IMG/VR virus record: IMGVR_UViG_3300007171_000004
Location: 236,537-300,536 of that record
Source of the DNA: a virus
Lineage: Duplodnaviria; Caudoviricetes
Direction: 5' to 3' (one strand)
DNA length: 64,000 nt
The position numbers and the translations under genes were made by a program. Positions 23,910 to 57,355 of the stretch are shown piece after piece. Numbering within the stretch: the first letter of the stretch is position 1; the number at the start of each line of letters is the position of its first letter. The notes under the pieces are model-generated. The model made no database searches. It saw only the letters and a list, made by a program, of their open reading frames with translations, and was not told the DNA's origin.

Positions 23910-25198
23910 TATAAACCATATCGGGATTTGTTAAGGTTGTATTGATTTAAAACTTCTTGAGATGATAATACTTTAGTATAAATTTTTAAGTATCCAAAAG
24001 AAGATCTTGTTCTTTCATTATTAAATTGATTCGTAGCAGATGCTAAAGCGAACGCTGTCAGTGTATTATTTACTAATGATGAAGAATAAATGGAGACTCC
24101 ATTTACAAAAATTTGATGTGCTGCAGCATTTTTTACCAATGTAATATGCGTATATTGTCCCAATAATAAAGTGTATGATGTATTGATCCAACCTGATCCT
24201 TGCACATATAAATGTATATTATTTAAAGGATAAACTCCACCTGTCCCAAGAGCTATGATTGCTGAATTTCCGTCTCCATCAAATATCCTGTTAAGTGCTA
24301 GTTGCCCAGTAAGTTGATATACATTTACAAACATTTCTAAAGTATAATTAGAAATAGAAAATCCAGAAGAAGAACTAGAGTCATCAGCACCATCAAAAAC
24401 AATTTCACCATTATAAGCGCTTGTATATGAGACTCCATTCAAAAGAGTCATATTGTAGTTATTTGAAGCTAAATTATACCAAGTACTCCCTGTTTTTGGA
24501 TATGATAAGAGATTAGCAGCATCATAGTTTAATAAAGTAAAATTTCCAAAGCTTAAGCTAAAACTTACTTGTCTAAAATGTAATAGATTTGTTGATGATA
24601 CATATTTTTCAACAATACCCACAATCAATAATTCAGGGCCAAAAGAATTAACATTTACCTTAACAAGTTTCCCGGCATTAACTCCACCACCAAAAGTAAG
24701 TAAATCACCAGGGTTTAATGCAACAGTGTCTAATCCATCAAGGCCATAATCTCCATGTAAAACAGGCTTAAATTGATCTGTTATGAAGATATTATTAGGT
24801 TGGTTATATACTGCAAGGCCACGTCTCGAAATTATATTTTTATCAGATGGATTATATAAATTTGGAATTCCCTCATTTAAATTATCAACTAGCCCTCTCT
24901 TAGAAATTACAACCTCATTATTTTCAGTTCTTATGTAGTTGTAAGAATTATCAATATAACTTGATCCAATGACATCTGGAATAATTATAGTGTTTGAATA
25001 AGCTGAATGATCGCTTGTTGCAAAACCTAAGAATTTACCAACTTTTTGTTCGAGAGTTTTAAATACTAACAATTGACTATCTGCTGGAACTCCTCTACCA
25101 TTATCATCCCTCATTAAAGCCATACCAGCCTTAAATGATGTAGAAATCATGATGTCTACATTTTCAACAGCATTAGAAGTTACAGTAAATATAGCCAT
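23909..25198 (-). CDS. LamG-domain decoration/fibre-like protein, paralog 3
   Basis: As above; VFDGADD..LKIYTKVLS. Confidence 0.8.
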   Translation of the reverse strand: MAIFTVTSNAVENVDIMISTSFKAGMALMRDDNGRGVPADSQLLVFKTLEQKVGKFLGFATSDHSAYSNTIIIPDVIGSSYIDNSYNYIRTENNEVVISKRGLVDNLNEGIPNLYNPSDKNIISRRGLAVYNQPNNIFITDQFKPVLHGDYGLDGLDTVALNPGDLLTFGGGVNAGKLVKVNVNSFGPELLIVGIVEKYVSSTNLLHFRQVSFSLSFGNFTLLNYDAANLLSYPKTGSTWYNLASNNYNMTLLNGVSYTSAYNGEIVFDGADDSSSSSGFSISNYTLEMFVNVYQLTGQLALNRIFDGDGNSAIIALGTGGVYPLNNIHLYVQGSGWINTSYTLLLGQYTHITLVKNAAAHQIFVNGVSIYSSSLVNNTLTAFALASATNQFNNERTRSSFGYLKIYTKVLSSQEVLNQYNLNKSRYGL

Positions 25199-26508
25199 TA
25201 AGATACAAGCCTTGGATAAATAGCATTATGATTTCTTTGAGCTTGTTCTGCTGTAAATCCAGTGTTATAGAATCTTACTGCAGCGATTTTTCCAGCTGTT
25301 TGCCAAGATGCCCATACAGTAATTTGAATTTCATGAGTATTTGTATAGTTATTTGGGTTATATATAGAATCATCAAAAATACCATTAATATAAGATGTCA
25401 TTACGCCAGCAGTTCTTGTAAATATGATAGAATACCAAGTGTTAATATATACAGGTCTTTTTCCTCTTAAGAAAATTCCACTTGGTGTTGTCAGTGGGTT
25501 CCAGAAAATCGGATTACCTGCGAACCATGATCCAATTACCCAAGAGTTTCCAGAAGGTACGCCACCAGTATTTGCCTTAGCTAAAATACCAGTAAGAAAA
25601 CCCTCTAATGCATAAAAAACAATTTCAACTGTAAAATCTCCTGAAAAATCCATAATTGCATTGTGTGGAATTGTCAAACGGTCATCAATTGTATCAAGAA
25701 CAATTACTCCCCCGTTTTCAGCCGACCAAAAAGCTCCATTATTCATAGAACCATTTAAGTTATTTCCACTCAAGTCATACCAAGTTGTGCCAGTTCCAGG
25801 ATAAGATACTGGACTGGAAGCATCTAAATTCAAATAAAGCCCTGTTGTAGCAATCGAAACTGTATTACTATAAGTTTCTAAAATATGCCTAAAATAAAGA
25901 ACTTTTGAGGCAGAATCATGCTTTTCTACAGAGCCTATAATAATTACTGAAGGACCATTGCCAGATAAATCAGCTTTTACTAATTTACCAGCATTAACAC
26001 CAGCTCCAAATGTTAAAAGATCTCCTGGAGAAAGAATTACATCTACATTTGAATCTTCTGCAACAGCCATGGCTAATTTTGTTGCAAATTGGTCTGTGAT
26101 ATAAATTTCTCCTTGGAGATTATATACGCCAGTACCCCTTATGGTTTCTGGATTGTTATTGGATATTTGATAAAAATTATTTACATTCTCATCTCTGTAA
26201 TCTAAAATAGATCTTTTAGGAGCAGCATAAGGAGCATTTGTATTATCGTAAAATGCTGAATCAATATTGTAATTACTGCCTACTGGATCGTTATTAATAA
26301 TTGTGCTAGTAGTTGAGTGATCATTAGAAGAAAATCCAATAAATTTGCTTCTTTGTTCTGCTAAGCTATCAAAACTGAAAGAAGCTCTATCAGCTAAAAC
26401 AGCTCGTCCATTATTATCAAACATAAGAGCAGAACCAGCTTTAAAGTCAGTTGAAATTGACACTGGAATATTTACTACGTACTTATTGAAAAGAGGAAAG
26501 ATTGCCAT
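25198..26508 (-). CDS. LamG-domain decoration/fibre-like protein, paralog 2
   Basis: MAIFPL subgroup; LDASSPVSYPGTGTTWYDLSGN. Confidence 0.8.
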   Translation of the reverse strand: MAIFPLFNKYVVNIPVSISTDFKAGSALMFDNNGRAVLADRASFSFDSLAEQRSKFIGFSSNDHSTTSTIINNDPVGSNYNIDSAFYDNTNAPYAAPKRSILDYRDENVNNFYQISNNNPETIRGTGVYNLQGEIYITDQFATKLAMAVAEDSNVDVILSPGDLLTFGAGVNAGKLVKADLSGNGPSVIIIGSVEKHDSASKVLYFRHILETYSNTVSIATTGLYLNLDASSPVSYPGTGTTWYDLSGNNLNGSMNNGAFWSAENGGVIVLDTIDDRLTIPHNAIMDFSGDFTVEIVFYALEGFLTGILAKANTGGVPSGNSWVIGSWFAGNPIFWNPLTTPSGIFLRGKRPVYINTWYSIIFTRTAGVMTSYINGIFDDSIYNPNNYTNTHEIQITVWASWQTAGKIAAVRFYNTGFTAEQAQRNHNAIYPRLVS

Positions 26509-27806
26509 TAAATTAATTTACCCATACTTGCATTATAATTTTGTCTTACTTGTTCTGCTGTCATACCTTGGGAATATAAGCGTACAAATGGAGTTTTCAA
26601 TTTTGACCATAAACCATAAGAGTCCCAAGATCCAATAACAAAACCAGTGGAAGTATTTAAGCTTAAACTGTTATTAAAAGAAAATCTCAAAGTACCATTA
26701 TAATAACAATTGATAACACCACTATTACGAGTTACAATTACATGGTTATACTTAGTAAAAGAATTTTCTCCACCCCATTGATCTAAAGCTGGGGGATACC
26801 AAGATCCACTATATCTGATTAAAAACCACATAGAATTGCCACCAGTTGCAGACAATACCCAGTTAGCCTCTGCGTCTGAACTTCTTCTATGTAACCAACC
26901 TCCGCCTCCAACTTGTTTAATCAATGCTCCTTCAATGGTAAAATCTCCAGGAAAATCTAATAGTGAATTATCTGCTACAAGGGCTTGGTCATTAGTCCCG
27001 TCAAATGTCATTACACCACCATTTTCGCTTGACCAAAGTACACCATTCTGGAGTTCAGCATTCAATCCATTACCACTCAAATCATACCAAGTAGTTCCTG
27101 ACCCTGAATATGATGTAGGATTGCTTGCGTCTAAATGAACTGTGATACCTGTTGTAAATAACGACACTGTATTATTGTAACTTTCTAATACATGTCTAAA
27201 ATACAATAAATTACTGGCTGCATCAAACTTCTCAACTACTCCAATAATCAATACAGAAGGACTAATAGCTGAAGTATCTGCCTTTACTAATTTTCCAGCA
27301 TTGATTCCAGCTCCATAAGTAAGTAAATCACCAACATTAAAATCTACTTGAGCTGTACCATCAGAATCAATAAATAAACTTGCAACTCTTGAAAATTGGT
27401 CTGTAATATAAATTTCGCCTTGAAGATTGTAAATTCCAATGCCTCTTTTAGAATATTCGGAAAATAATACTCCAGAAACTGATTCGTCTCTAAATTCATA
27501 AATAGATCTTTTACTTGCAGAATAATGAGAATTAACATTATCTACAAATTTATTATCAGATGAAATATAATTACTGCCTACAGGATCAGACATTAAAATA
27601 GAAGATAAATTAGTGTGATCTCCTGAAGCAAAACCTAGAAATTTACCAGATCCTTCAACGATTGAATTATAACTAATATTACTTCTGTCCGCTTTAACAG
27701 CATTACCATTTGAATCAATAACAAGCGCCATACCAGAAGTAAAGCTCTCATTAGCAATTACTGGGAAATTTACTGCATGTTTATTATATAGAGGAAAAAT
27801 TGCCAT
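26508..27806 (-). CDS. LamG-domain decoration/fibre-like protein, paralog 1
   Basis: MAIFPL subgroup; LDASNPTSYSGSGTTWYDLSGN. Confidence 0.8.
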   Translation of the reverse strand: MAIFPLYNKHAVNFPVIANESFTSGMALVIDSNGNAVKADRSNISYNSIVEGSGKFLGFASGDHTNLSSILMSDPVGSNYISSDNKFVDNVNSHYSASKRSIYEFRDESVSGVLFSEYSKRGIGIYNLQGEIYITDQFSRVASLFIDSDGTAQVDFNVGDLLTYGAGINAGKLVKADTSAISPSVLIIGVVEKFDAASNLLYFRHVLESYNNTVSLFTTGITVHLDASNPTSYSGSGTTWYDLSGNGLNAELQNGVLWSSENGGVMTFDGTNDQALVADNSLLDFPGDFTIEGALIKQVGGGGWLHRRSSDAEANWVLSATGGNSMWFLIRYSGSWYPPALDQWGGENSFTKYNHVIVTRNSGVINCYYNGTLRFSFNNSLSLNTSTGFVIGSWDSYGLWSKLKTPFVRLYSQGMTAEQVRQNYNASMGKLI

Positions 27807-43267: not shown

Positions 43268-43643
43268 TATACCAAAAGAAAAAGGATGGTTAAATTCTCC
43301 AGAAAACAAGAAAATTTTACCACCCCCCCTATAACTCTACAAAAGAACACATCCCATAAAAATTATATATATACCGGAAACAAAAGGGATGGTTAAAATT
43401 CTAGGAAAACGAAAAAAATATAAGCCCCCCCTATCGTTCCCCCAGATTCTTGACATGCATATAAGTGAAAACAATTGTCCATAATAAAAACACAAAGAAT
43501 AATCCAGACAACAAGATCTTAAAAATAATACTCATAAATAAATTCCCCCAATATGTTTAATAATAACACCAAAACAAAAGGCTCCAAATTCTCTGTAAAC
43601 GATAGGCGGATTTTTAAGGGGGTCGAAAAAAATTGACGGGGGG
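43268..43643. repeat. Imperfect direct repeats with C7 runs followed by G runs; origin/terminus candidate
   Basis: atacc..aaaa(g)gatggttaaa(a)ttct..gaaaac..aaaa..ccccccctat at ~43268 and ~43369, partial third at ~43567; G runs at 43618-43633. Confidence 0.6.
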
Positions 43644-45455: not shown

Positions 45456-45492
45456 AAAAAAAATCCCCTAGAGTTTTTAAGGCTCTAGGGGA
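45456..45492 (-). terminator. Terminator downstream of candidate ncRNA
   Basis: tcccctagag..ctctagggga with T8 on minus strand. Confidence 0.8.
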
Positions 45493-45535
45493 TAAAGGAG
45501 TTACACATGAAACACAAACAGAAACAGGTTTTGAA

Positions 45536-45815
45536 ATGTGGTTGGCTGGAGTTCAACCAGTACGGAACACAAGGGCAGTTCTTTCGATGGTCTCTGCCTC
45601 CGATGGTATTCTTGTCTCATATGAGAGCATAATACCCAACCACATATTATATGCCTTGACATAACTGTTTGCGTCAGTCCCTGCCAAGGACAGTAAGAAC
45701 TTGTGGCTTTTTGACCACCCCAAGGTTGCTACCCTTATTTGAATCTCGCAATAGATTCTAGCCGTTCTGGATTCTTACTGGTTGAGGGAGGTTCTAGACT
45801 CCATCCCTACACCAA
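45536..45815 (-). ncRNA. Candidate structured ncRNA (two multi-stem domains)
   Basis: GC-elevated intergenic DNA; 10-bp stems cagtaagaat/gttcttactg and atgtggttgg/ccaaccacat enclosing hairpins; G-U pairs favour minus strand; promoter upstream, terminator downstream. Confidence 0.55.
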
Positions 45816-45816
45816 T

Positions 45817-45845
45817 ATATTACGCCATCTCTAAGTAATCTGCAA
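45817..45845 (-). promoter_or_regulatory. Sigma70-like promoter of candidate ncRNA
   Basis: TTGCAG-17-TAATAT. Confidence 0.65.
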
Positions 45846-45867: not shown

Positions 45868-45923
45868 GTTATTTGGATCATTCTGTCGGGGGGTTAACCC
45901 CCCGAGGACTTGTTTTAAATAAT
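45868..45923. repeat. 56-bp symmetric element, copy 1
   Basis: Core TCGGGGGGTTAACCCCCCGA at 45886-45905. Confidence 0.95.
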
Positions 45924-46004
45924 ATTTTTTAGTATAGAATTTGCAAAAAAAATCCCCTTCAAGATTTAACAAGAAGGGGTTGGAGGTGAACACCACATTC
46001 ACAG

Positions 46005-46454
46005 TTATAGTTTACAGGCAATATCTTCTGTTGTCAAGGTGTATTCTGGAAGAAATTCCTTAACAAGTTTCCATCCATCTTTTTCGTAAACATTGTAAAC
46101 TTGCCAGACATTATTAACATACAGATAAAAGTAATCTACACTGGAAGAATATATGTTGTGTAATTCATCCATTGAGGTAATTACAGCATCTACGCCATCT
46201 TCCCCACGGTCTCTGTTATAGAATACTGTTACACCCTCTTCTGGGTTATCAAAAGTATGTTCACCTTCAGGATGTAATTCAGATGTAAGATAACTCATAT
46301 CACCAAAACTAAGCAATTCATTGATGCTATCTACTGTATTGTAATTTGCAACCAGAGTTTGACCTACACCATCAGGATATCCATCAAAGTGACAATAAGA
46401 ATGCTTGATTGTTCCATCATAAAGCATAATACCGATTCTAGCGTGAGTTGACAT
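46005..46454 (-). CDS. Conserved phage hypothetical protein
   Basis: MSTHARIG..YCHFDGYP..VGQTL; own RBS and terminator. Confidence 0.8.
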   Translation of the reverse strand: MSTHARIGIMLYDGTIKHSYCHFDGYPDGVGQTLVANYNTVDSINELLSFGDMSYLTSELHPEGEHTFDNPEEGVTVFYNRDRGEDGVDAVITSMDELHNIYSSSVDYFYLYVNNVWQVYNVYEKDGWKLVKEFLPEYTLTTEDIACKL

Positions 46455-46491
46455 ATTTATCTCCTTGGATTAAGTATATCACAATTTAAAT

Positions 46492-46812
46492 TTACAGAAT
46501 GATATATTTAAATTGCTCTTTGCCTTGCCATGCCCGTGAAAGTCCTGCCAATGTCATCCAAACTAAAGACAAGAAACTAACACCACAGACACAACCTACA
46601 AATGTCATAGTATTGTGAATGTTGCCAATCAAAATGTATTCAATCAAACAAGCAATTGGCATTACACAAGCAACAGCAAATGATAATAGTACAGAGTATT
46701 CAAGCATATTATGAAACACTTTTGGCATATGCTTTGTAATCTGCCAAAATGCGACAAAACCGCCTGTGTAAAGAAAAACCTGCATTGTTCTATTAATAAT
46801 CTCTTCGTTCAT
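46492..46812 (-). CDS. Membrane protein
   Basis: Three hydrophobic segments; RBS ggag before MNEEII. Confidence 0.65.
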   Translation of the reverse strand: MNEEIINRTMQVFLYTGGFVAFWQITKHMPKVFHNMLEYSVLLSFAVACVMPIACLIEYILIGNIHNTMTFVGCVCGVSFLSLVWMTLAGLSRAWQGKEQFKYIIL

Positions 46813-47030
46813 CCTGCTATCTCCCATTGTTCAGAAAGTATATCTTCTGCTGTAAACCTATAACAAGCCCAGAAACTCATTTCTTCTCCAGTAGACCAAA
46901 TACATTTAAATCTTAGTTTTGATTCTTCCATCTTAACTAAAATAACAGTAGTGGATTTTGGATTCCATTTCTTGCTTCTGGTGATTGTTTTACCATCACG
47001 CATAAAGGGCAATACTTGTTCAAGTTTCAT
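46809..47030 (-). CDS. DUF2829/Tad2-like small protein
   Basis: M..EQVL..MRDGKTITR..WN...EDILSEQWEI pattern. Confidence 0.5.
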   Translation of the reverse strand: MKLEQVLPFMRDGKTITRSKKWNPKSTTVILVKMEESKLRFKCIWSTGEEMSFWACYRFTAEDILSEQWEIAG

Positions 47031-47075
47031 ACACCTATATTATCATAAAATATTACTGCGTCAAGGATAAAAAAC

Positions 47076-47131
47076 ATTATTTGTTTCCACCTGTCGGGGG
47101 GTTAACCCCCCGAAGACTGGAGTTAAATAAT
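47076..47131. repeat. 56-bp symmetric element, copy 2
   Basis: Core at 47094-47113. Confidence 0.95.
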
Positions 47132-47142
47132 AAAAAAAAGAT

Positions 47143-47170
47143 TTGCATCATATATTATTTTTGATATAAT
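47143..47170 (+). promoter_or_regulatory. Cassette promoter
   Basis: TTGCAT-16-TATAAT with TGn. Confidence 0.8.
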
Positions 47171-47230
47171 GTATGCATCGTTGAGGTTTAGAACCCTCCT
47201 GCGGGGTGAATCGCAGGGCTGGAGGCTGAT

Positions 47231-47611
47231 ATGCGTAACTTGTATGACAAGATGTGTTGCTGGTGCAAGGGTCACGTTCGTGCGGGCGAGGGTCAGGCTT
47301 GGAACTATCGTGGGCGATGGTATGCGGGATGCCCTACCTGCCTTGAGGAGCGTAAAGGTTCTAAGGCTAAGGCGGATATTCGCATTGAGTATCCATGCGT
47401 GATGGCAACGTCCAGTACCAATGTATACGGCGTGTTCAAGTATGACACATACCCTGCAAGTTCGGTTCTGGCAGGTGCGGAACGGCGTACGTGGCTTGAT
47501 GAGTTTGCAACGCTTGAGGAGGCTATTAAGGCTTACCCTAAGGCAACCAAGCACTGTGGTCCCGGCTACCATGAAGACAACTACGAGTGGCTCTCTGAGG
47601 AGGAGGACTAA
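47231..47611 (+). CDS. High-GC cassette gene, N-terminal Cys-rich (Zn) region
   Basis: RBS ggagg; CCWC..CPTC; terminator at 47618-47642. Confidence 0.8.
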   Translation: MRNLYDKMCCWCKGHVRAGEGQAWNYRGRWYAGCPTCLEERKGSKAKADIRIEYPCVMATSSTNVYGVFKYDTYPASSVLAGAERRTWLDEFATLEEAIKAYPKATKHCGPGYHEDNYEWLSEEED

Positions 47612-47663
47612 AGCCTTGACCCCTTCGGGGGTCTTTTTTTTTATCTATAGCAATCTAAAATTT

Positions 47664-47721
47664 ATTATTTAACTCAAGTCTTCGGGGGGTTAACCCCCCC
47701 CGACAGAAAGATACAAATAAT
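47664..47721. repeat. Symmetric element, copy 3 (inverted; C8 variant)
   Basis: Core at 47682-47703. Confidence 0.95.
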
Positions 47722-47732
47722 AAAAAATAGTC

Positions 47733-47760
47733 TTGCATCAGTTATTATTTTTGATATAAT
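47733..47760 (+). promoter_or_regulatory. Cassette promoter
   Basis: TTGCAT-16-TATAAT, near-identical to 47143. Confidence 0.8.
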
Positions 47761-47780
47761 AAGAGCATAAGGAGTTTGGA

Positions 47781-48053
47781 ATGAAAGTTAACTTGAAAGA
47801 GTATGGTCTCTGTGACGTTGTAAAGAACGAGTATCCTAACGGTAATCTCGCATTGTCCCTCAAGGATGCGTACGGTTCTCCAATCGCTAGCGTTAGCACA
47901 AACATCATCCCCCTGTTCGACAATGAGTTTGTTCTTGATGTAAACAACCTGTCTCTTATCCTTGATGAGATTCTTGAATCCGGGTTGTTTCAGGACACGG
48001 GAGACAAGGTGCAATCAGGGTTTGTAGAATATCCAATCTACAGGTTGGTATAA
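47781..48053 (+). CDS. DUF4313-like protein
   Basis: YPNGNLAL..SVSTN..LDVNN..TGDKVQSGFVEYPIY; RBS aaggag; terminator 48055-48080. Confidence 0.75.
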   Translation: MKVNLKEYGLCDVVKNEYPNGNLALSLKDAYGSPIASVSTNIIPLFDNEFVLDVNNLSLILDEILESGLFQDTGDKVQSGFVEYPIYRLV

Positions 48054-48149
48054 GATAGGGGGCTTGAAAAAGCCCCCTATTGTTTTATCTAGGCTTGCTA
48101 AAAAACCTTATTTGAAAAAAGTTGTCGTATAAGATATTTGAGGTGAAAA

Positions 48150-48536
48150 ATGGAACAAGCTGTAATGATTGGTTTGGTATCGGTTTTATTTTGTTTCAAT
48201 GTCTGGTTAATTGGTGCAAATGAATCAATCAAGAATCAAAATGAAACTCTAAAGAATCTTAACAACAATTTGAATAAAGATTTAGAAGAATTAAAGAGTA
48301 AAAATTCTTCTCTTTGGCATGAAACATTAGAATTAAAAGAACACATTGAATCTTATAAATTTCCTGTAGGTTCTAAGGTTAAGTGGTTAGATCGCACAGG
48401 AGAAGAAGAATTTGGAATTGTCTATGATGATTATGAGATTCTAGATAAGCATTATGTTGTTATTAAAAGATTGAAAGATGACAAATTAATTGGCTCTCCA
48501 CTTTCAATTAAGGCAGAAAAATTAACAGTATTATAA
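48150..48536 (+). CDS. TM plus coiled coil plus SH3-like protein
   Basis: RBS gaggtg; FPVGSKVKW. Confidence 0.7.
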   Translation: MEQAVMIGLVSVLFCFNVWLIGANESIKNQNETLKNLNNNLNKDLEELKSKNSSLWHETLELKEHIESYKFPVGSKVKWLDRTGEEEFGIVYDDYEILDKHYVVIKRLKDDKLIGSPLSIKAEKLTVL

Positions 48537-48573
48537 AAAAAAATCCCCCTTGAATAATCTTGGGGGATAACTT

Positions 48574-48777
48574 TTACTTTACGGAATATTGGGTATAAAA
48601 TCTGCTACCGTCATTTAATACCCATTCTGTTTTATATTTCCTAGCACACGTTTCACCTAACTCTTGTGCATTAGACCCAGAAGCCAAAAGCAATCCATTC
48701 CTAAACGCAGAAAACTTAAGTCTAGGAAAGTTAGTTACAAAACGAACCTCAATCTTATCTTGCAAATCCATGTCCAT
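48574..48777 (-). CDS. Small hypothetical protein
   Basis: RBS aaggag, promoter-like box, terminator. Confidence 0.65.
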   Translation of the reverse strand: MDMDLQDKIEVRFVTNFPRLKFSAFRNGLLLASGSNAQELGETCARKYKTEWVLNDGSRFYTQYSVK

Positions 48778-48804
48778 CTCCTTACAAAAATAGTATATCA
48801 GAAA

Positions 48805-49302
48805 TCATTTAAGAGTCAAGAGTTTACTGCTTAAATAAGGGTCATTTTTAAATCTTTTTAGCCCCATCTTTGTATATCCCAATGCATTTAATCTATCACC
48901 ATTTTTAATACAAAGACTAACAAGAGAGTGAAAAGTAGTGGCGGGACAATCTTTAAAACGGATAGCACTTTCATAATAACGGATTGATAATTGTTCATCT
49001 TTCTTCATCGACCTATAAAACATACCAGTAAATTCATAAGACCTATATCCATTAGGCATTAGGGACAAATATCTCTTAGTAAAAATTTCAGCATCATTTA
49101 ACCAGCTTGAATCTTTACTATTAATACTCATAGACCACATAAGCCAAATCATATTCTCCCAAGCATCACGGTCTTTGTAATCTATCTTAAGCACTTCTTT
49201 GTATAGATTAATAATTTTGGGATAGTCACCAGTTTTAGTATCTGTGCCATGCCAAAGAGTTTCAATAGTTTTCTTTAAATATTCTAGTTTACGAGTTTGC
49301 AC
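48805..49302 (-). CDS. TPR-like helical protein
   Basis: IINLYKEVLKIDY..AW..; YYESAI repeats. Confidence 0.6.
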   Translation of the reverse strand: MQTRKLEYLKKTIETLWHGTDTKTGDYPKIINLYKEVLKIDYKDRDAWENMIWLMWSMSINSKDSSWLNDAEIFTKRYLSLMPNGYRSYEFTGMFYRSMKKDEQLSIRYYESAIRFKDCPATTFHSLVSLCIKNGDRLNALGYTKMGLKRFKNDPYLSSKLLTLK

Positions 49303-49639
49303 TTGCTTCTAACTCCAATTCTTCTGCATCATAAGTATTTAAAATATGATTACTAACATTCTGCGGTAATTCTACATTCTTCATAAAACCTAAAAGAATA
49401 ATTTTCTTCTTAAAATTTTCGTAAACAGTTTTTCTTTTACGTTGAGAATTATCCCACTCATATGTAAATAAATTCATATCATTTAAAATTGAAGAGTGAC
49501 TAAATTCAATAAGATAAGTACCATCCATATGAATAAAAGAATCAAAACCGGAAATTATATCATCTCCCTTTAATTCATATCCTGTGCCAGTTTTAGAAAA
49601 ATATATCCAGACTTTTGTTTCCATGTCAAATTTTACCAT
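49289..49639 (-). CDS. Hypothetical protein
   Basis: 116-aa ORF. Confidence 0.6.
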   Translation of the reverse strand: MVKFDMETKVWIYFSKTGTGYELKGDDIISGFDSFIHMDGTYLIEFSHSSILNDMNLFTYEWDNSQRKRKTVYENFKKKIILLGFMKNVELPQNVSNHILNTYDAEELELEASANS

Positions 49640-49671
49640 ATATATTTAATGTCTGCAATTATCTAAAAAAG

Positions 49672-49727
49672 ATTATTTGAAACATTCTGTCGGGGGGTTA
49701 ACCCCCCGAGGACTTGAAACAAATAAT
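49672..49727. repeat. 56-bp symmetric element, copy 4
   Basis: Core at 49690-49709. Confidence 0.95.
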
Positions 49728-49779
49728 AAAAAATAGTTCATCTGAGACAAAAAAAGACCCCGTTTCAGGGGTCTTTAGA

Positions 49780-50040
49780 TTACAGTTCGATATTGATGTA
49801 AGATACACCGATTAAGTTATGGATAGAATATTCTTTCCAGTTCTTAAGAAGGGTCTCTGCAAACTCATGTCCTTCCAGAGCCTTTTTGATAGCATCTGAG
49901 AACTTGTTCGTCCTTACCAGAGTATAAGTGGTTTTATCATCACCGTATGTAAACTCATCAAGGACATCGTTGCAAACATCTGTGTCAAGTTCCAGAGTGT
50001 AAAAGATGTCTGATGCATCTGCGAATGTTACCTGTCTCAT
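49780..50040 (-). CDS. Single-gene cassette, hypothetical protein
   Basis: RBS aaggagg; promoter TTGCAT-16-TATTAT 50065-50092; terminator ~49749-49776. Confidence 0.8.
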   Translation of the reverse strand: MRQVTFADASDIFYTLELDTDVCNDVLDEFTYGDDKTTYTLVRTNKFSDAIKKALEGHEFAETLLKNWKEYSIHNLIGVSYINIEL

Positions 50041-50114
50041 GTCAACCTCCTTGGTTACAGGTTAATAATATCATAAATGATTTGTGATGCAATGGGTATT
50101 TTAAACTATTTTTT

Positions 50115-50170
50115 ATTATTTAAATCATTCCTTCGGGGGGTTAACCCCCCGACGACTGGAAACAAATAAT
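50115..50170. repeat. 56-bp symmetric element, copy 5
   Basis: Core at 50133-50152. Confidence 0.95.
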
Positions 50171-50222
50171 AAATTTTAGATTGACAAAAGCAAAAAAAAG
50201 CCCCCGTTTCAGGGGGGGCTTG

Positions 50223-50942
50223 CTACGCCATCGGCAGAATCTTTAATGCCTTTTTAATCTTTTTATCTGTTCCAGTATCAGGGGCGAACAGAATCACAAG
50301 TTTACGGCGGTGGAGGTGCTTATCCTGCATACAAAGCCCGCAGGACTTGCAAGAGTCGGTTTTCTTGACCTGATAGGGACAAGGGATACCAGTAAAGCCG
50401 TTTCCAAGGTTCACAGGGCGATGTGATTCGTGTTTAGTAGGAACGACCAGACTACAGGCATAACCACGGTCATGCTCTACTTGTAACTGTTCCACGGATT
50501 CGCACGAACGCAGAATACTAACATCGCCCCAAACATTACGGGGAACATCCAATGCATGGGTGTATGTCCAAACCCGTTTGCCGGAACGCTTTATATAAGC
50601 ATTATACGCTTCTGATACAATCCGGGCGGCTTCCACGGTTTTACAATCACCGACAACATGACCCCGCAGGTCATACTTGCCTTTAAGACGGTTCACGGCA
50701 TCCGCTTCAAAACGGGCTATCTGTTCCGGTGTAAACATTCCAATGGACTGTGCTAGGTTCAATCGTTTTGTTGTAATACCTGCATGACCTGTTTCGGCAT
50801 AACATCCTGCATTATAGAAGGAACAGTTAGATGGGCATGAACCTTGACTTGCCCAAGTAGCGGACACCGTTTTGTCGGTGGAAAGTTTACGGTCGGCAGA
50901 CCGCTCTACGGCAATGGCTGGGGCTGTGTATGTGTAACTCAT
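50223..50942 (-). CDS. Cys-rich GP88-like phage protein (single-gene cassette)
   Basis: SCPSNCSFYNAGCYA, RGHVVGD, WTYTH, CP..SCKSCGLC; promoter 50949-50976; terminator ~50191-50221. Confidence 0.6.
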   Translation of the reverse strand: MSYTYTAPAIAVERSADRKLSTDKTVSATWASQGSCPSNCSFYNAGCYAETGHAGITTKRLNLAQSIGMFTPEQIARFEADAVNRLKGKYDLRGHVVGDCKTVEAARIVSEAYNAYIKRSGKRVWTYTHALDVPRNVWGDVSILRSCESVEQLQVEHDRGYACSLVVPTKHESHRPVNLGNGFTGIPCPYQVKKTDSCKSCGLCMQDKHLHRRKLVILFAPDTGTDKKIKKALKILPMA

Positions 50943-50997
50943 GACATCATTATATCGACATTATATAAAAATACAATGGCATTTTGAACTATTTTTT

Positions 50998-51053
50998 ATT
51001 ATTTAAAACATTCCTTCGGGGGGTTAACCCCCCGACGACTGGAAACAAATAAT
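50998..51053. repeat. 56-bp symmetric element, copy 6
   Basis: Core at 51016-51035; within 99-bp repeat 50974-51072. Confidence 0.95.
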
Positions 51054-51115
51054 GTTTTTCAGATTGACAAATGCCAAAAAATGCCCCCCATTTCTGGAGG
51101 GCTGGTTGGTTGATT

Positions 51116-51481
51116 TTAGAACAACCGGGAATATGGTTTGGTTGCCAATGCACCGTCTGGTATGGCAATGCTGTAGTGGTTGCTAAGTTTACCGAACAGG
51201 TTTGGGAGGCTCTTGTGGAGGTGTGCAAAGGCGAATGTCTTGCCCTTGGAGGTTACCTTCATCGATACGTGAACACGGTTCAGAGCGTCAACGTAAAGGT
51301 GAACATCGACCTCAGAAGAGCGGAAAACGACATATTCGTTGCTGTCCACCTTCTCAGATACACGCTCATAGGACGCAGGGAGAGACTCTGCAAGCGTATT
51401 AATGAAGGCATCCAAAGCACGGGGCATGGACACAGGGGCGACATTGAGGAATGGTTCGGAGACAAAGTTTACGGTTTTCAT
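51116..51481 (-). CDS. High-GC cassette hypothetical protein
   Basis: RBS aagga; terminator ~51076-51102. Confidence 0.7.
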   Translation of the reverse strand: MKTVNFVSEPFLNVAPVSMPRALDAFINTLAESLPASYERVSEKVDSNEYVVFRSSEVDVHLYVDALNRVHVSMKVTSKGKTFAFAHLHKSLPNLFGKLSNHYSIAIPDGALATKPYSRLF

Positions 51482-51530
51482 TGGTTATCCTTTCAAAGCC
51501 CCCTGTAGTGACCTACAAGGGGCATATAGA

Positions 51531-51845
51531 CTATTCTGCGATGGTCTTTCCGGTGTTATCGGCAATAAGAGCATTGAAGAAGAATGTCTCTGCCTTGATA
51601 CGGGCATCCAAGAGCATGACAGACTTTTCAAGGAATCTTACAGATTCAATCTTGTCCTGAAGAATCAGTGTCATGTGAGCGTTACGGGTTGTTTCGTTGG
51701 TTCCGAAACCTTTGTACTCTTCGGACGCTTGAATCTTTGCCTCAGAGAGCAGGAGGTCAAGTTTAGCGTCCATGAGAAGGGACGTAGCCCCTGCCTTTTC
51801 GGTGAGCAGGTCTTTGAGAGTGGTTGCGATGGTCGTAGTGTTCAT
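51531..51845 (-). CDS. High-GC cassette coiled-coil protein
   Basis: RBS ggag; promoter TTGCAA-17-TATACT 51885-51913. Confidence 0.75.
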   Translation of the reverse strand: MNTTTIATTLKDLLTEKAGATSLLMDAKLDLLLSEAKIQASEEYKGFGTNETTRNAHMTLILQDKIESVRFLEKSVMLLDARIKAETFFFNALIADNTGKTIAE

Positions 51846-51934
51846 ACGGTTCTCCGGTCAGTGTAGCCCGATTGCTACAGGAACAGTATAGGAAATATTT
51901 AATGACATTGCAATGGCATTTTGAACTATTTTTT

Positions 51935-51990
51935 ATTATTTAAAACATTCCTTCGGGGGGTTAACCCCCCGACGACTGGAAACAAATAAT
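51935..51990. repeat. 56-bp symmetric element, copy 7
   Basis: Core at 51953-51972; within 99-bp repeat 51911-52009. Confidence 0.95.
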
Positions 51991-52040
51991 GTTTTTCAGA
52001 TTGACAAATTATAAAAATAGGGGTAGTTAACCCCTATTAA

Positions 52041-52334
52041 TTAATAAATAATGTTAAGGAATTTAGTCTTAACACAACGTCCTTCTTTATTAAGAAATTG
52101 TGCAATTCTCAGGATATTTACAATATCATAACCGTTGCCAGTATCACAACATAAATTATATGCATCATAAAGGTTACCTTCAAGAATCTGCCCAACAAAT
52201 CCGTGATAACGCAAGCGGGATGCATTTTCGTTATCCATGAAAGCTTGGAAATCTTCGATTATGTTTGCGATAGGATAATAAGTTTCACTTACAGGCTTGC
52301 CCATAAACATCAGTACAGTTTCTGTCATCATCAA
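52041..52334 (-). CDS. Single-gene cassette, hypothetical protein
   Basis: RBS aaggag; extended -10 TGaTATAAT; terminator ~52016-52038. Confidence 0.75.
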   Translation of the reverse strand: MMMTETVLMFMGKPVSETYYPIANIIEDFQAFMDNENASRLRYHGFVGQILEGNLYDAYNLCCDTGNGYDIVNILRIAQFLNKEGRCVKTKFLNIIY

Positions 52335-52388
52335 ACTCCTTACATGAATATTATATCAAAAAGTACAATGAATTTCTGACTTTTATTT

Positions 52389-52445
52389 ATTATTTATATC
52401 TTTCTGTCGGGGGGGTTAACCCCCCGAGGACTGGAAACAAATAAT
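52389..52445. repeat. Symmetric element, copy 8 (G7 variant)
   Basis: Core at 52407-52427. Confidence 0.95.
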
Positions 52446-52507
52446 GAAAAATAGTTTAAAAAATGGCAAAAAATCCCCCCATTTCTGGGGGGAATGTGGT
52501 AGGGAGG

Positions 52508-53836
52508 TTAGACCCCTACCATCTGATACTTTGCAACGATGTTCTCCGGGAGAGAGGAGGCACTATCGGAGAGCGTTCCCCAACGCTTCTGTATCGCCTT
52601 CAGGTCTGCATCAATGGACGGTGCAAGGATGATGCTTGCGGTCGTTTCCATCTGTTCACGGAGAACACCGGAGAATGCTTGCGCCCCTCTTGTGAGACCG
52701 TTTACAAGACCGAATGCCGTTTCGTGGGCAATGTCTCCAGATGGTTCCTGAAGCGTCTCCAGATAACCTTGCGACCATGCACGACCCTGCTCTATGGTCA
52801 TCTTGTTGTCACGGGCTACCTTAGCGATAACCTGCTGTACATTCTTGACCTTGACCTGTTGGGTGAGGTTCATCAGGGTGAGAATGGCGTTGCCTTCAGA
52901 CAACGCCAGAATAACAGCCTCCCGAACCTGTAGACGGATGTTGTCCTTGTCGATGGTTCCAAGGTGCTTTTGGTTGATGGCAATCTCAGAGTTACGCCGT
53001 CCCCATATCATGCCATTGAGACAGATGGCACGGAACAGGAATGGAGAAATCTTGAATGCACCGTTGCGAATCTCACTGTTGCGGAATGAGATGCCCACGC
53101 CGTAATCAGAATCAGGCTGTTGCTTGATGTAGTCTGGCAGGAGGATGTTGCCTTGAATATCATCTCCATTGTTGAAGAAATGGGATGCCAGAGCATCATT
53201 GAGGTTGCTACCAGATGGCAGAGCATCGGCGATAAACTCCAGAGCGTCAAGATTGTCCAATACACCGTACCGACCAGAGCAAACAGCACGAACAACAGGT
53301 GCATCACCCTCTTGACGGAGACGGAGACGAAAGTTCCGTGCGTCACGGTCACGCTCTCCATTGTTCCATTCGCTTTCACGCTTGGTAAGTTCGGCGTTGA
53401 AATACTTGGGAATGTCGGTCTCAAAACCTGCATTGACCAAGTAGGAAACAGTGGTGGAAGGAATCGGGGTGAAGGTGCGGAGGGATTCCAAACCGTCTGC
53501 GTTGATAGCCGTGCCATCGGTCAAGCGGTCATAGGATGCCAAGCGAACCTCAGACTCCAAGACAACCTTGTCGAACTTGCCTTCGTGTTGATTGCGAACA
53601 ACGGAGAGAGCATCTGACATAGGTGTACACTTGTCCTGCCATACCTTTGCTACATGGCGGTGGGTTGCGGATGATTCCAAGCCAATAGCATTCTTCCATG
53701 TGCCGTTAGCATCTTGCTTTGCAACGGAATCAGGGCGAACCTGCAAACCTGTCTCTGCACCGAAAACCTGCGTGTTAGGGGAGACTACAGGGACGTTGTC
53801 CCCAATCTCAAGGATACCGAATCTGTCTTTGTTCAT
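52508..53836 (-). CDS. DUF932-family protein (high-GC single-gene cassette)
   Basis: VRAVCSGRYGVLDN, GISFRNSE, FLFRAICLNGM, KHLG; RBS aggag; terminator ~52468-52493. Confidence 0.8.
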   Translation of the reverse strand: MNKDRFGILEIGDNVPVVSPNTQVFGAETGLQVRPDSVAKQDANGTWKNAIGLESSATHRHVAKVWQDKCTPMSDALSVVRNQHEGKFDKVVLESEVRLASYDRLTDGTAINADGLESLRTFTPIPSTTVSYLVNAGFETDIPKYFNAELTKRESEWNNGERDRDARNFRLRLRQEGDAPVVRAVCSGRYGVLDNLDALEFIADALPSGSNLNDALASHFFNNGDDIQGNILLPDYIKQQPDSDYGVGISFRNSEIRNGAFKISPFLFRAICLNGMIWGRRNSEIAINQKHLGTIDKDNIRLQVREAVILALSEGNAILTLMNLTQQVKVKNVQQVIAKVARDNKMTIEQGRAWSQGYLETLQEPSGDIAHETAFGLVNGLTRGAQAFSGVLREQMETTASIILAPSIDADLKAIQKRWGTLSDSASSLPENIVAKYQMVGV

Positions 53837-53930
53837 TCCAAAATCTCCTGTAGCGGTCGGCTACGAAAAGATTATATCGAACTGTCAAGGAAAAACAATA
53901 AAAAACTACGCTGATTTTGAACTATTTTTT

Positions 53931-53986
53931 ATTATTTGTTTCCAGCCTTCGGGGGGTTAACCCCCCGACAGAATGTTTTAAATAAT
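53931..53986. repeat. 56-bp symmetric element, copy 9 (inverted)
   Basis: Core at 53949-53968. Confidence 0.95.
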
Positions 53987-54624: not shown

Positions 54625-54696
54625 CAGCTCCAGTAAGAATCGAACTTACAATATGGCTTTAGAAGAGCCGTGTTATATCCATTTAACTATAGAGCC
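54625..54696 (-). tRNA. tRNA-Arg(TCT)
   Basis: Manual cloverleaf GGCTCTA/TGGAGCT, anticodon loop CTTCTAA, T-loop TTCGATT. Confidence 0.9.
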
Positions 54697-54717
54697 TTAA
54701 CTGACTATATTATACCA

Positions 54718-54864
54718 CTATTTTCCGTATTTGCTATTAATGTCATCAACCATTTTAATCAATTTATCAAGCCGTTTACAGAGATAATAATTTGCGACAA
54801 AGATAGGAATTGACATTATAATTCCTAATACCATTCCTCTGACAAGTGCTTCGAGTAAATTCAT
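54718..54864 (-). CDS. 48-aa membrane peptide
   Basis: Manual translation MNLLEALVRGMVLGIIMSIPIFVANYYL.. Confidence 0.4.
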   Translation of the reverse strand: MNLLEALVRGMVLGIIMSIPIFVANYYLCKRLDKLIKMVDDINSKYGK

Positions 54865-55011
54865 TTTTTTTAATCTTTCTTTTTGAGTGATTTATATTCT
54901 TTCAGGGTTTTTCGCAGCATATAGATTTGAAAGAATATTGGAACGTATAATAAAATAAATAAGACGATGAATATAGTATAGAGATTGTGTTTAATAAATT
55001 CCATGTCTCTA

Positions 55012-55299
55012 TTATATCACACATCTATTGAGACTGTCTTGTTCTTGGAAATATTTTGTTGCTTCTAATGCACATTTCCATCCAAACAATTTATCTTGGA
55101 CTTGATTAAAATTAAAACCTAAAGAGACAAAATCAATCCATTCATTTTCTGTGATATGATAAATGATTGTTACGAACCAATTATCTTCTGATGAATCGTA
55201 TCTGGAGTTTTGAGCCATATCGAAAAATAAAATAATAGAAGAGTTTTGATTAATTTCTTCTATTGTGTTTTTGATAACTTCGGCTTGTTCTTTAGTCAT
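55012..55299 (-). CDS. Hypothetical protein
   Basis: 95-aa ORF between tRNAs. Confidence 0.6.
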   Translation of the reverse strand: MTKEQAEVIKNTIEEINQNSSIILFFDMAQNSRYDSSEDNWFVTIIYHITENEWIDFVSLGFNFNQVQDKLFGWKCALEATKYFQEQDSLNRCVI

Positions 55300-55308
55300 A
55301 ATTTAAAA

Positions 55309-55379
55309 AGCTCCATAGACGAATCAAACGCCTACCTAATCTTTACAAGAGAACCGTACTATCTTTATACTAATGGAGC
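55309..55379 (-). tRNA. tRNA-Thr(TGT), atypical T-loop TTTGATT
   Basis: GCTCCAT/ATGGAGC acceptor, loop CTTGTAA. Confidence 0.8.
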
Positions 55380-55388
55380 AAAAAAAGG

Positions 55389-55459
55389 TTCCCAGACAAG
55401 GATTTGAACCTCGATAAACAGAGCCAAAATCTGCTGAATTGCCGTTATTCGATCTGGGA
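55389..55459 (-). tRNA. tRNA-Gln(TTG)
   Basis: TCCCAGA/TCTGGGA acceptor, loop TTTTGGC, T-loop TTCAAAT. Confidence 0.9.
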
Positions 55460-55479
55460 ACAATCAAACTAATTATACA

Positions 55480-56238
55480 TCAAAATTCTGGTTTATCAAG
55501 TTTACCAGATTTAATTTTTTCCCAATCACCTCTGCCTGGTTTTGTGATGTTATAGTATTTACACCATTTATTAACAGCATTATCACTAACACCAAACATT
55601 TCTCCAATTTTTATGCAAGGCATTTCCCATACGAGTTTTTCTAAAATTTCTTTGTCTGGTCTTTTAGATACTTTAATAACAGGTTGATAAAATTTTTCTG
55701 GCTGCACTTCTTTAACATATTTTGGAAATAATGTCTTTTGAGCAATAAAAATTTTTTCAGCATCGATAAGTCCGGCGTGTATTTCTCCATGGCAGTTAGA
55801 GCATACTAAAATACACTTGTCTAATTCATCAACAATTAAGTCAAATTTTCTAACATTAATTTCTCCTATATTGAATGATTTAGTTTCTGGATATACGTGA
55901 TGAAAATGTAAAGAGCCAATATACTTGTTATAACCACAAACTGAACAAGCTCCGCCTTTATATTCAATTGCTCTTTCTTTAGTTTTAGTTCTATAGATTA
56001 AACTATAACATCTACTACATTTATCTTTGTGCTTTCTGTGTCCACCTTGATATTTTCTTTCACAAATTTTACAAATCTTCATAACAACTCTTGTGTCATC
56101 ATTTTCTAAACTTCTTGTGTTATGTGATCCAAAAGGTGAACAGTCTAAACAATATTTTCTTTTATCAAATTTTCTTACTTTTCCATCTATGAACATACTA
56201 CATGGAATTTTATTGTTACACTTTAAACAATTTCTCAT
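55480..56238 (-). CDS. HNH homing endonuclease with Zn fingers and C-terminal HTH
   Basis: YKGGACSVCGY, LHFHHV, CILVCSNCHGEIH; lies inside tRNA cluster. Confidence 0.85.
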   Translation of the reverse strand: MRNCLKCNNKIPCSMFIDGKVRKFDKRKYCLDCSPFGSHNTRSLENDDTRVVMKICKICERKYQGGHRKHKDKCSRCYSLIYRTKTKERAIEYKGGACSVCGYNKYIGSLHFHHVYPETKSFNIGEINVRKFDLIVDELDKCILVCSNCHGEIHAGLIDAEKIFIAQKTLFPKYVKEVQPEKFYQPVIKVSKRPDKEILEKLVWEMPCIKIGEMFGVSDNAVNKWCKYYNITKPGRGDWEKIKSGKLDKPEF

Positions 56239-56333
56239 AATTTCTCTTAATGGTGTTCAGTTCGATTTGACACCAATTAAGTTATACATATAAAATTAAA
56301 AAAAACTCCTTTGAAATTAATCAAAAAAGTTTA

Positions 56334-56405
56334 TAGTCTGTAGGGGAATTGAACCCCTGACTCATCCGTGAAAGGGACGCATCTTAACCACTTGACCAAC
56401 AGACC
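56334..56405 (-). tRNA. tRNA-Glu(TTC)
   Basis: GGTCTGT/ACAGACT acceptor, loop CTTTCAC. Confidence 0.92.
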
Positions 56406-56436
56406 TCGAAATTTATTATATCTCGAAATTTTAAAA

Positions 56437-56509
56437 CTCCTCGGCCAAGATTCGAACTTGGGACATACAAGTTAACAGCTTGTCGCTACTACCACTGAGC
56501 TACCGAGGA
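56437..56509 (-). tRNA. tRNA-Asn(GTT)
   Basis: TCCTCGG/CCGAGGA acceptor, loop CTGTTAA, TTCGAAT. Confidence 0.92.
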
Positions 56510-57176: not shown

Positions 57177-57237
57177 CCCCGTCGTCTAGAATCAAATAAC
57201 CTTTTTTAGATTGGTCCGTGGGAAAGTTTTAAATAAT
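57177..57237 (+). repeat. Two decayed half-sites of the symmetric element
   Basis: ccccgt-N11-AAATAAC and ccgt-N11-AAATAAT, both with G at spacer position 7. Confidence 0.7.
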
Positions 57238-57355
57238 CTTTTTTAGACACACAATAAAAAAAGCAGCCTACTAGAATTTAATCTAATAAGCTGCTTCGCT
57301 AATTGTTTGTTATTTTTATTATACTCGAAATCCTTTTAGTTATATTAAGAGGATA

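Follow-up and report, generated by a model that had tools for sequence, protein, structure and literature searches.

Hairpin elements at the joints of a gene-cassette island in an uncultured freshwater jumbo phage

The stretch of DNA analysed here, referred to as the window, comprises 64,000 nucleotides of the IMG/VR virus record IMGVR_UViG_3300007171_000004 (Duplodnaviria; Caudoviricetes). Between positions 45868 and 53986 of the window, nine copies of a G/C-rich palindromic element, e1 to e9, separate the small gene cassettes c1 to c8, and we consider these elements to be probable cassette joints of the promoter-early stem-loop (PeSL) type. The whole record is 129,429 bp long and its completeness was estimated at 36% by CheckV; hence, the source is a jumbo (giant) phage, uncultured and from fresh water.

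The cassettes lie on either strand. Cassette c1 (46005-47030, minus strand) encodes proteins of 149 aa (phrog_1987), 111 aa, and 73 aa, the last of which matched the Tad2-like family PF11195 (E = 7e-8). Cassette c2 (47231-47611, plus strand) holds a 126-aa ORFan with a GC content of 0.53. Cassette c3 (47781-49639) is convergent, with plus-strand genes of 90 and 128 aa, minus-strand genes of 67, 165, and 116 aa, promoters at both ends, and terminators in the middle; its 90-aa protein gave a match to DUF4313 below the threshold (24.8 bits versus a cut-off of 27). The other cassettes are all on the minus strand: c4 (49780-50040) with an 86-aa ORFan; c5 (50223-50942) with a DUF7227/GP88-like protein of 239 aa (GC 0.48), for which no relatives were found in IMG/VR; c6 (51116-51845) with ORFans of 121 and 104 aa (GC 0.49 and 0.47); c7 (52041-52334) with a 97-aa ORFan; and c8 (52508-53836) with a DUF932 protein of 442 aa (GC 0.51). 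Most cassette genes are ORFans or contain domains of unknown function (DUFs), and six of them have a GC content of 0.43-0.53, compared with 0.33 for the window. This high GC content was considered as proof of recent capture, an argument that was weakened by the homologues of c8. These homologues (55-67% identity) are common in metagenomes, including contigs of 368-370 kb, and are GC-rich in every clade that carries them (0.44-0.53 versus 0.35-0.37). Hence, composition alone cannot date the capture of c8.

Subsequently, the elements between the cassettes were examined. Nine copies of TCGGGGGG-TTAA-CCCCCCGA (the 20-mer TCGGGGGGTTAACCCCCCGA) lie across 45886-53968, compared with none expected from shuffled sequence. 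Seven of the nine are exact, and the inexact copies are those at 47682 (8 C, two extra C) and 52408 (7 G, one extra G). The 16-nt core was absent elsewhere in the 129,429-bp record, and all nine sites lie inside 8 kb. Aligned at the base of the stem, each of the 18 arms shows CGA-N11-AAATAA(T/C), then seven A/T letters and AG; this A and G, 8-9 nt past AAATAAT, were found in 18/18 and 17/18 arms, respectively, and spacer position 7 was G in all 18. The core stem-loop is G6-TTAA-C6 inside an 8-bp stem, and the element as a whole is predicted to fold into an 8-bp G/C stem, an internal loop, and a 7-bp A/T stem (hairpin z-scores of -2.9 to -5.5) without a U-tract. No copy lies inside a credible gene, since e1, e6, and e9 are touched merely by short open reading frames that overlap larger genes.

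Element e1 (GTTATTT-N11-TCGGGGGGTTAACCCCCCGA-N11-AAATAAT) occupies 45868-45923, no strand being assigned to it or to the other elements. Its left arm faces the promoter of a putative noncoding RNA (ncRNA) and its right arm faces the terminator of c1. Element e2 (47076-47131) has divergent promoters on either side, that of c1 leftward and that of c2 rightward. Element e3 (47664-47721), whose 8 C are in the half-stem on the right, is placed between the c2 terminator, toward which its left arm points, and the c3a promoter on the side of its right arm. Elements e4 (49672-49727), e5 (50115-50170), e6 (50998-51053), e7 (51935-51990), and e8 (52389-52445, with the 7 G in its left half-stem) follow, and e9 (53931-53986) has the promoter of c8 leftward and that of a 139-aa gene rightward. 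The spacers of each copy are unequal: one is of a type termed A, which ends in GAAAC or GAGTT (GTTTT in e1), and the other is of a type termed B, nnGAATGnTTT. The left spacer of e1 is B and the right one is A, and the left spacer of e2 is an A/B hybrid. Furthermore, e6 and e7 share 99 identical bp (50974-51072 and 51911-52009, the former including the whole of e6), and the conserved unit is about 100 bp. A preliminary description, made from the letters of the window alone, had reported nine symmetric elements of 56 bp. The nine palindromes, the exact 11 nt to AAATAA(T/C) on all 18 arms, and the position of the copies outside genes were all borne out, and the size and the symmetry had to be given up because of the longer conserved unit and the unequal spacers. 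The A and G past AAATAAT had gone unmentioned there.

Every interval between elements is composed of a promoter, a Shine-Dalgarno (SD) sequence, one or more genes, and an intrinsic terminator, as the preliminary description had stated for most of them. The order of signals from gene to gene was read on the minus-strand run of cassettes from c8 to c4. Along the direction of transcription, the first signal is the intrinsic terminator belonging to the preceding cassette, a G/C stem with a T-run. It is followed by about 25-35 nt with the conserved TTTGTCAAT between the terminator and ATTATTT, and then by ATTATTT, an 11-nt spacer, the 8-bp G/C hairpin, and another 11-nt spacer. The joint is completed by AAATAAT-N7-AG, which is AT-rich and UP-like, and then by -35 and -10 boxes of the sigma70 type, a strong SD sequence, and the next gene. 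The terminator of c5 (50198-50221, minus strand), 46 nt before the e5 core, is one example; further intrinsic terminators were located at 49753-49776, 51083-51102, 52016-52038, and 52474-52493 on the minus strand and at 47618-47633 on the plus strand, and a canonical terminator precedes every terminator-facing arm.

All nine B arms lead to sigma70-like boxes, such as the predicted c5 promoter TTCAAA-17-TATAAT (50960-50988, minus strand). Seven A arms face a terminator, and the other two (e2R and e9L) face the promoters of divergent genes. Further sigma70-like promoters are predicted at 47142-47170 on the plus strand and at 47037-47064 and 51885-51913 on the minus strand. Typical boxes are TTGCAT-16-TATAAT, TTGACG-16-TAATAT, and TTGCAA-17-TATACT, frequently with the TG of an extended -10. 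That the stretch is an "early region", as it had been called, would follow solely from these sigma70-like promoters. In the compact promoters, 16-18 nt separate the start of AAATAAT from the -35 box downstream of it, which puts AAATAAT in the zone where an UP element is positioned; the hairpin is centred near -75, some 40 nt above the -35 box. The terminator-facing arms e5R, e6R, and e7R carry a perfect TTGACA with the customary spacing to AAATAAT and no -10 box. A SigH-type promoter was also considered for the B arm; RNNGAAT fits, and the candidate was rejected for want of an AGGA -35 box at the proper distance, as judged by eye.

To place the elements among known sequences, databases were searched. 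The exact 20-mer had no match in IMG/VR or among cultured phages, and the 16-nt core gave 45 single matches there, which were unrelated, had different flanks, and lay mostly on high-GC contigs. A blastn search against cultured phages gave only a weak 102-bp match to Pectobacterium phage CBB, at a locus without such elements, and a 489-aa protein of the window had no match among cultured phages. In Rfam, there was no family for the elements or for the adjoining ncRNA. The search for the motif beyond the window, suggested in the preliminary description, was more fruitful with metagenomes. About half of the sampled words of the region were present in Logan contigs of ten studies (drinking water, reservoirs, estuaries, wastewater, and fresh water), and contigs of four of these studies span the whole region at 90-99% identity. 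The contigs of these four studies cross e2, e4, e8, and e9 in the order of the window and break at the near-identical e3 and e5-e7. When metagenome contigs of the Joint Genome Institute (JGI) were scanned with the 20-mer, 16 loci were obtained.

These loci include four lineages. Lineage A (L075, L078, L080, and L066) is 94-99% identical to the window and collinear with it. In lineage B (L070, L076, L074, and L081; about 86-89%), the order is that of the window, c1a and e1 are absent, the ncRNA is inverted, and c2 is truncated. In lineage C (L077; 70-85%), exactly c7 and one element are missing, and other sequence is found in place of c1a/c1b. Lineage D (L069; 74-90%) has the order c8 - element - c4 - element - c6 - element - c2, with c2 inverted. 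In a further lineage, L084, the c8 protein is 67% identical to that of the window and the order is r139, a 103-aa gene, c8, c3e, and c3d; hairpins are absent, and AAATAAT-N7-AG half elements are present. Even in lineages with no more than about 75% identity, copies of the element occupy orthologous sites, and these invariably have a terminator on one side and a promoter on the other. Thus, gain, loss, reordering, and inversion of cassettes at the elements were observed directly in the relatives, and the elements are confined to one variable island. The claim that the element serves as a cassette junction is upheld by relatives that differ by whole element-bounded cassettes (L077, L069, and L084), and the proposed comparison of cassette content and order revealed loss, reordering, and inversion.

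Some further observations concern rearranged forms and half elements. In one run (X1), a single contig joins 50987 and 52458 on opposite strands via the outer arms of e6 and e8; such a joint would set c5 and c7 head to head and may represent an inversion variant. In three of four runs, contigs bring 45478 and 55006 together across 21 other letters (seen in the joint table only), which suggests a co-occurring strain without the whole 9.5-kb island, namely the ncRNA, all cassettes, the 139-aa gene, and a transfer RNA (tRNA) gene, tRNA-Arg. No circle junctions were found in the metagenome contigs, which drop rare forms. In the window itself, two direct half elements without a hairpin, AAATAAY-CTTTTTT-AG, lie at 57186-57246 (no strand assigned) upstream of an 84-aa gene. 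They are the only other copies of the arm motif above chance in the record, and resemble a relic or a hairpin-less form like those of L084. With this relic set aside, the arm motif AAATAAY-N7-AG was discarded as a genome-wide signal (11 found, about 10 expected).

We then compared 45 distinct copies of the element from the metagenomic lineages. The stem and AAATAAT on both arms are kept across lineages, and the distance of 11 nt from the stem base to AAATAA was found in 89 of 89 evaluable arms despite strong divergence of the spacers. Footprints across three lineages keep the terminator, TTTGTCAAT, ATTATTT, the stem, AAATAAT-N7-AG, the -35 and -10 boxes, and the SD sequence, and the intergenic DNA beyond the element has many indels. 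The length of the G/C run was altered in eight copies. The G at spacer position 7, which had been described as invariant, holds for the window and is not invariant in the relatives. The loop was TTAA in 29 copies, TAAA in 8, TTTA in 5, and something else in 3, the variants including ATAAA and TTTTA. Since 16 of the 45 loops are not TTAA, GTTAAC is not needed and is not a cut site.

This variation of the loop bears on two alternative explanations. According to one, the element is a site of cutting, telomere resolution, or replication origin centred on GTTAAC, or else a selfish intergenic repeat similar to repetitive extragenic palindromes (REPs) or miniature inverted-repeat transposable elements. 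The perfect palindrome of the window core, with GTTAAC as its centre, and the multicopy, intergenic occurrence would suit it. We nevertheless regard it as extremely improbable, because the centre is unconserved in relatives, by which the cut site is largely refuted, because no protelomerase or Y1 transposase was matched in this record or in a 358-kb relative (see below), and because the copies keep orthologous positions between terminator and promoter and occur nowhere else in the 129 kb. A role as origin, raised in the preliminary description, is unlikely, given that 8 kb hold nine copies and the island of a relative about 18. According to the other explanation, each arm is itself a promoter, with the loop TTAACC as the -35 box, AATAAT as the -10 box beyond a spacer of 18 nt, and transcription beginning at AG, so that the element would be a back-to-back divergent pair. 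Indeed, TTAACC-18-AATAAT scores 9/12 consensus matches on all 18 arms, and the exact spacing and the AG 8-9 nt past AATAAT suit the geometry of a promoter. However, the loop that would supply the -35 box is TAAA, TTTA, ATAAA, or TTTTA in relatives and highly variable in more distant clades, the terminator-facing arms would fire antisense into the upstream gene, and much better sigma70 promoters, conserved in the footprints, follow at variable distance. This explanation is therefore highly improbable.

The spacers provided information on the exchange among copies. Within genomes, spacer identity among paralogues was 0.82, 0.69, and 0.56; between genomes, it was 0.58 for orthologues and 0.59 for non-orthologues. 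Furthermore, in the orthologous e4 of L077, the inner 42 bp are flipped and the outer flanks remain in place. These results indicate that the copies exchange sequence in both orientations and are homogenised within each genome by concerted evolution. A fixed functional polarity of the A and B arms, true for 9/9 in the window, was also considered and dropped, as it is broken in L077.

More distant relatives were found in IMG/VR via the gene on the left flank (about 70% identity of its product), among them a contig of 358 kb with a completeness of 89%. The G/C element is absent from these relatives. Instead, the loci L064/L063 carry a dense array of another hairpin, AGGnnnGGT-loop-ACCnnnCCT, in a unit with the order terminator, hairpin, 13 nt ending in TTGTC, AAAT(A/T)(A/T)A, and TTGACA-17-TATAAT. 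The 358-kb genome was scanned with a hairpin pattern that leaves both triplets free and is thus unbiased toward pairing. Eighteen sites were obtained, all within 27 kb at the syntenic place, and the free triplets, of seven kinds, were complementary in 18/18. Among 26 distinct copies from the sister clades, double changes were found at five of the nine stem pairs, and no G-U pair was found in 234 stem cells; these copies were chosen partly by pairing, which biases the count, and the set of 18 sites is free of that choice. A third clade is represented by the 370-kb contig L082, which has a homologue of c8 and an rIIB-like gene and carries seven co-varying GGGGTGrTA-loop-TAyCACCCC hairpins flanked by TTTATTT and AAATAAA at 12-15 nt and then by TTGCAT-17-TATAAT. 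The hairpin loop is highly variable in the sister clades. The architecture of the joint is thus clade-wide and confined to an island. Because the stems co-vary, a foldable hairpin, and not one sequence, has been selected; what selection maintains is the capacity of both strands to fold into a perfect hairpin. Accordingly, the dimeric protein that had been proposed to bind the palindrome as a specific double-stranded sequence is disfavoured, the sister-clade hairpins varying freely in sequence and being always self-complementary.

In another explanation, the hairpin or cruciform with AAATAAT at a fixed distance is the site of a structure-specific regulator of the phage or its host. All promoters of the island would be switched together via this shared operator or enhancer, and recombination would be a by-product. 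The constancy of the 11-nt spacing in spite of diverging spacers, the invariance of AAATAAT on both arms, the restriction of the elements to one island here and in the 358-kb relative, and the Watson-Crick pairing of the stems all speak for such a site, and a hairpin family particular to each genome is expected if the site co-evolves with its protein. On the other hand, no candidate binding protein was identified, the three stem positions that are free among copies within one sister-clade genome are hard to reconcile with a sequence-specific duplex binder, and the polarity of the spacers relative to the promoter is not fixed in relatives, as in the flipped e4 of L077. We regard this regulator as possible, though unlikely.

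A dedicated recombinase was also sought. In the 129-kb record and in the 358-kb relative, there was no match to a tyrosine recombinase (PF00589), for which the control genomes all matched, to a serine recombinase, to a Y1 HUH transposase (PF01797), or to a protelomerase of the ResT/TelK type (PF16684). Three genes of the sigma-70 family were present in each of the two. A cut at GTTAAC by a protelomerase-like enzyme and site-specific recombination of the integron kind, both raised in the preliminary description, are accordingly not supported. In its remaining form, the latter explanation supposes sites that are recognised as folded hairpins, like attC, by a recombinase encoded in the unsampled 64% of the genome. 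The arrangement as a cassette array with sites of conserved structure and variable sequence across clades, the one indel that comprises a clean cassette and one element, and the inner core flipped at one orthologous site would agree with this. Against it stand the missing recombinase and HUH transposase, also in an 89%-complete relative with its own element family, the promoters and terminators owned by cassettes in both orientations, the identity of copies over about 100 bp, well past a core site, and divergence breakpoints inside cassettes. It is very unlikely in our judgement.

The known elements that the joints resemble most strongly, by the published definition, are PeSLs, a likeness that had been noticed in the preliminary description. 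PeSLs have been described in the T4-like phages RB49/phi1, PST/T4, and nt-1/KVP40 and by definition combine an early promoter of the sigma70-like kind with an AT-rich tract ahead of its -35 box and a stem-loop, frequently of the form Gn-loop-Cn (Arbiol et al. 2010, PMC2839356; Comeau et al. 2014, PMC4122927). They favour hyperplastic regions and ORFans, degraded half-PeSLs retain the -35 box and the stem-loop, and crossovers occur in or beside the loop without a dedicated recombinase (PMC2839356, PMC4122927). Their other characters are an active promoter, a stem-loop by which transcription is terminated or attenuated, and mini-circles that arise when neighbouring elements exchange. In the phage studied here, the repeated unit includes a predicted sigma70-like -35/-10 promoter (nine B arms and two A arms) that is conserved across lineages, an AT-rich tract above the -35 box (AAATAAT, the 7-nt A/T run, and AG on all arms), and a stable Gn-loop-Cn stem-loop. 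It is multicopy and limited to a variable, ORFan-rich region (8 of 129 kb here; 27 of 358 kb in the relative). Half elements that retain the -35 box and the stem-loop occur (e5R, e6R, and e7R), relatives show indels, replacements, and reordering at the elements (L077, L069, L070, and L084), and no dedicated recombinase was found in this record or in the 358-kb relative. Every sequence-level and comparative feature of PeSLs, the promoters being predicted ones, is therefore present here.

There are also differences. The phage here, an uncultured jumbo phage of fresh water that has three sigma genes, is not recognisably T4-like. In its joints, a constant 11 nt separates the hairpin from the UP-like tract downstream of it; the stem-loop of the RB49/phi1 PeSLs, in contrast, lies mostly between the promoter boxes or over the -10 box and is upstream in a minority subclass and in PST (PMC2839356, PMC4122927). 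Moreover, AAATAAT with the AT tract stands in mirror image on either side of the hairpin, each element is preceded by a canonical terminator distinct from it, and the hairpin is far more uniform within the genome than in PeSLs.

From these comparisons, we judge it rather probable that the elements are PeSL-type cassette joints of terminator, hairpin, and promoter, and that they act at the same time as a seam for homologous recombination. The promoters would be read by the host RNA polymerase with its primary sigma factor, and the AAATAAT arm would function as an UP element. Folding of either strand, in a cruciform or in RNA reading through from one side or the other, would make the hairpin a two-way barrier between independently expressed cassettes. 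Furthermore, the near-identical copies of about 100 bp would be substrates for general homologous recombination, by which cassettes could be moved, deleted, inverted, or replaced without a dedicated recombinase.

Several points weigh against this reading. The use of the promoters and the function as a barrier are predictions. With no U-tract in the hairpin and a canonical terminator in each cassette, termination at the hairpin would be redundant or non-canonical. The lack of G-U pairs in the sister-clade stems is more in keeping with a structure of the DNA, or of both strands, than with an ordinary RNA terminator. A geometric constraint is suggested by the strict 11 nt, by the AAATAAT on both arms, even where an arm faces a terminator, and by the conserved orphan TTGACA; simple homology for recombination leaves this strict geometry unexplained. 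Strains of four studies that are 94-99% identical, from samples spread over several continents, share one cassette order, so that shuffling must be slow, and the breakpoints of mosaic divergence between close strains also fall inside cassettes. Finally, PeSLs have been defined in T4-like phages (PMC2839356, PMC4122927), and the Pfam families of the T4-type capsid protein Gp23 and of endonuclease VII gave no match, in searches made without a positive control. The hairpin of a PeSL-type joint could be a two-way transcriptional barrier, a cruciform that sets topology, or the site of a structure-specific protein. In a more speculative form, which we hold to be quite unlikely, the hairpin, extruded from its AT-rich flanks as a cruciform and particular to each lineage, would be the address of a structure-specific phage factor that both coordinates expression and catalyses exchange, giving an integron-like capture of cassettes without a known integrase in a clade-wide island.

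Other known systems share single features with the joints. Integron attC sites are also foldable imperfect palindromes that bound cassettes and are conserved in structure more than in sequence. Integron cassettes mostly lack promoters, point the same way, and share one promoter, beside a tyrosine recombinase of the IntI type; they differ from the present elements in that no integrase was found here, each cassette has its own promoter and terminator in either orientation, and the homology between copies spans about 100 bp. The early promoters of phage N4, hairpin promoters read by the virion RNA polymerase, likewise combine a transcription signal with a short G/C hairpin whose distance from it is fixed; here, however, ordinary sigma70-type boxes follow the element, and the loop and stem sequences vary between clades. 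No T7/N4-type RNA polymerase domain was matched, in a search made without a positive control. The hr regions of baculoviruses, which bind IE-1 as duplex enhancers and origins, are likewise dispersed imperfect palindromes with a restriction site at the centre that lie between gene blocks, but they belong to a different virus realm and differ in size and sequence, and in the present elements the unconserved centre and the co-variation of the stems point to a hairpin. REPs with their associated tyrosine transposases (REP/RAYT) are dispersed over many intergenic sites; the copies of the present element occur only at orthologous cassette boundaries, and neither the record nor the 358-kb relative had a match to a Y1 HUH transposase.

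Several neighbouring features were recorded. Outward from e1, a conserved structured ncRNA of about 300 nt would be transcribed from the minus strand (45480-45830), with a predicted promoter TTGCAG-17-TAATAT and its own terminator. Among six homologues, compensatory changes were found at 22 base pairs and long single-stranded stretches were invariant, and the ncRNA is 90% identical in a relative whose flanks are only about 70% identical. In three of four runs, the depth of metagenome contigs over the ncRNA was 10-50 times that of the flanks. To the left, two tandem units of about 103 nt ending in ACCACCCCCC lie at 43275-43431, and three are found in the 358-kb relative (L064, 646-937); they may be small RNA genes. 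On the other side of the island, a gene for a 252-aa HNH endonuclease (55480-56238, minus strand) lies inside a cluster of five tRNAs (54625-56509). The protein is 79-90% identical in contigs otherwise unrelated to the window, and the gene is probably a mobile homing gene; synteny via this gene was therefore unusable. Further away, five tandem paralogous genes of 429-442 aa occupy 21283-27806 on the minus strand, and the one examined has a C-terminal concanavalin-like (Laminin_G_3) domain. In addition, a 129-nt direct repeat opens four genes (38704, 39378, 39916, and 41896), giving them a common N-terminal leader.

Taken together, these findings would extend modular shuffling of the PeSL type beyond T4-like phages to uncultured freshwater jumbo phages. 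They also supply comparative evidence, previously missing for PeSLs, for selection on the hairpin itself, in the form of co-varying stems, fixed spacing, and a free loop. Given its ORFans, its DUF932 gene, and its candidate anti-defence gene of the Tad2-like kind, the island is a place in which to seek genes for counter-defence and host takeover, and the element may serve as a simple sequence handle for locating such islands in metagenomes.

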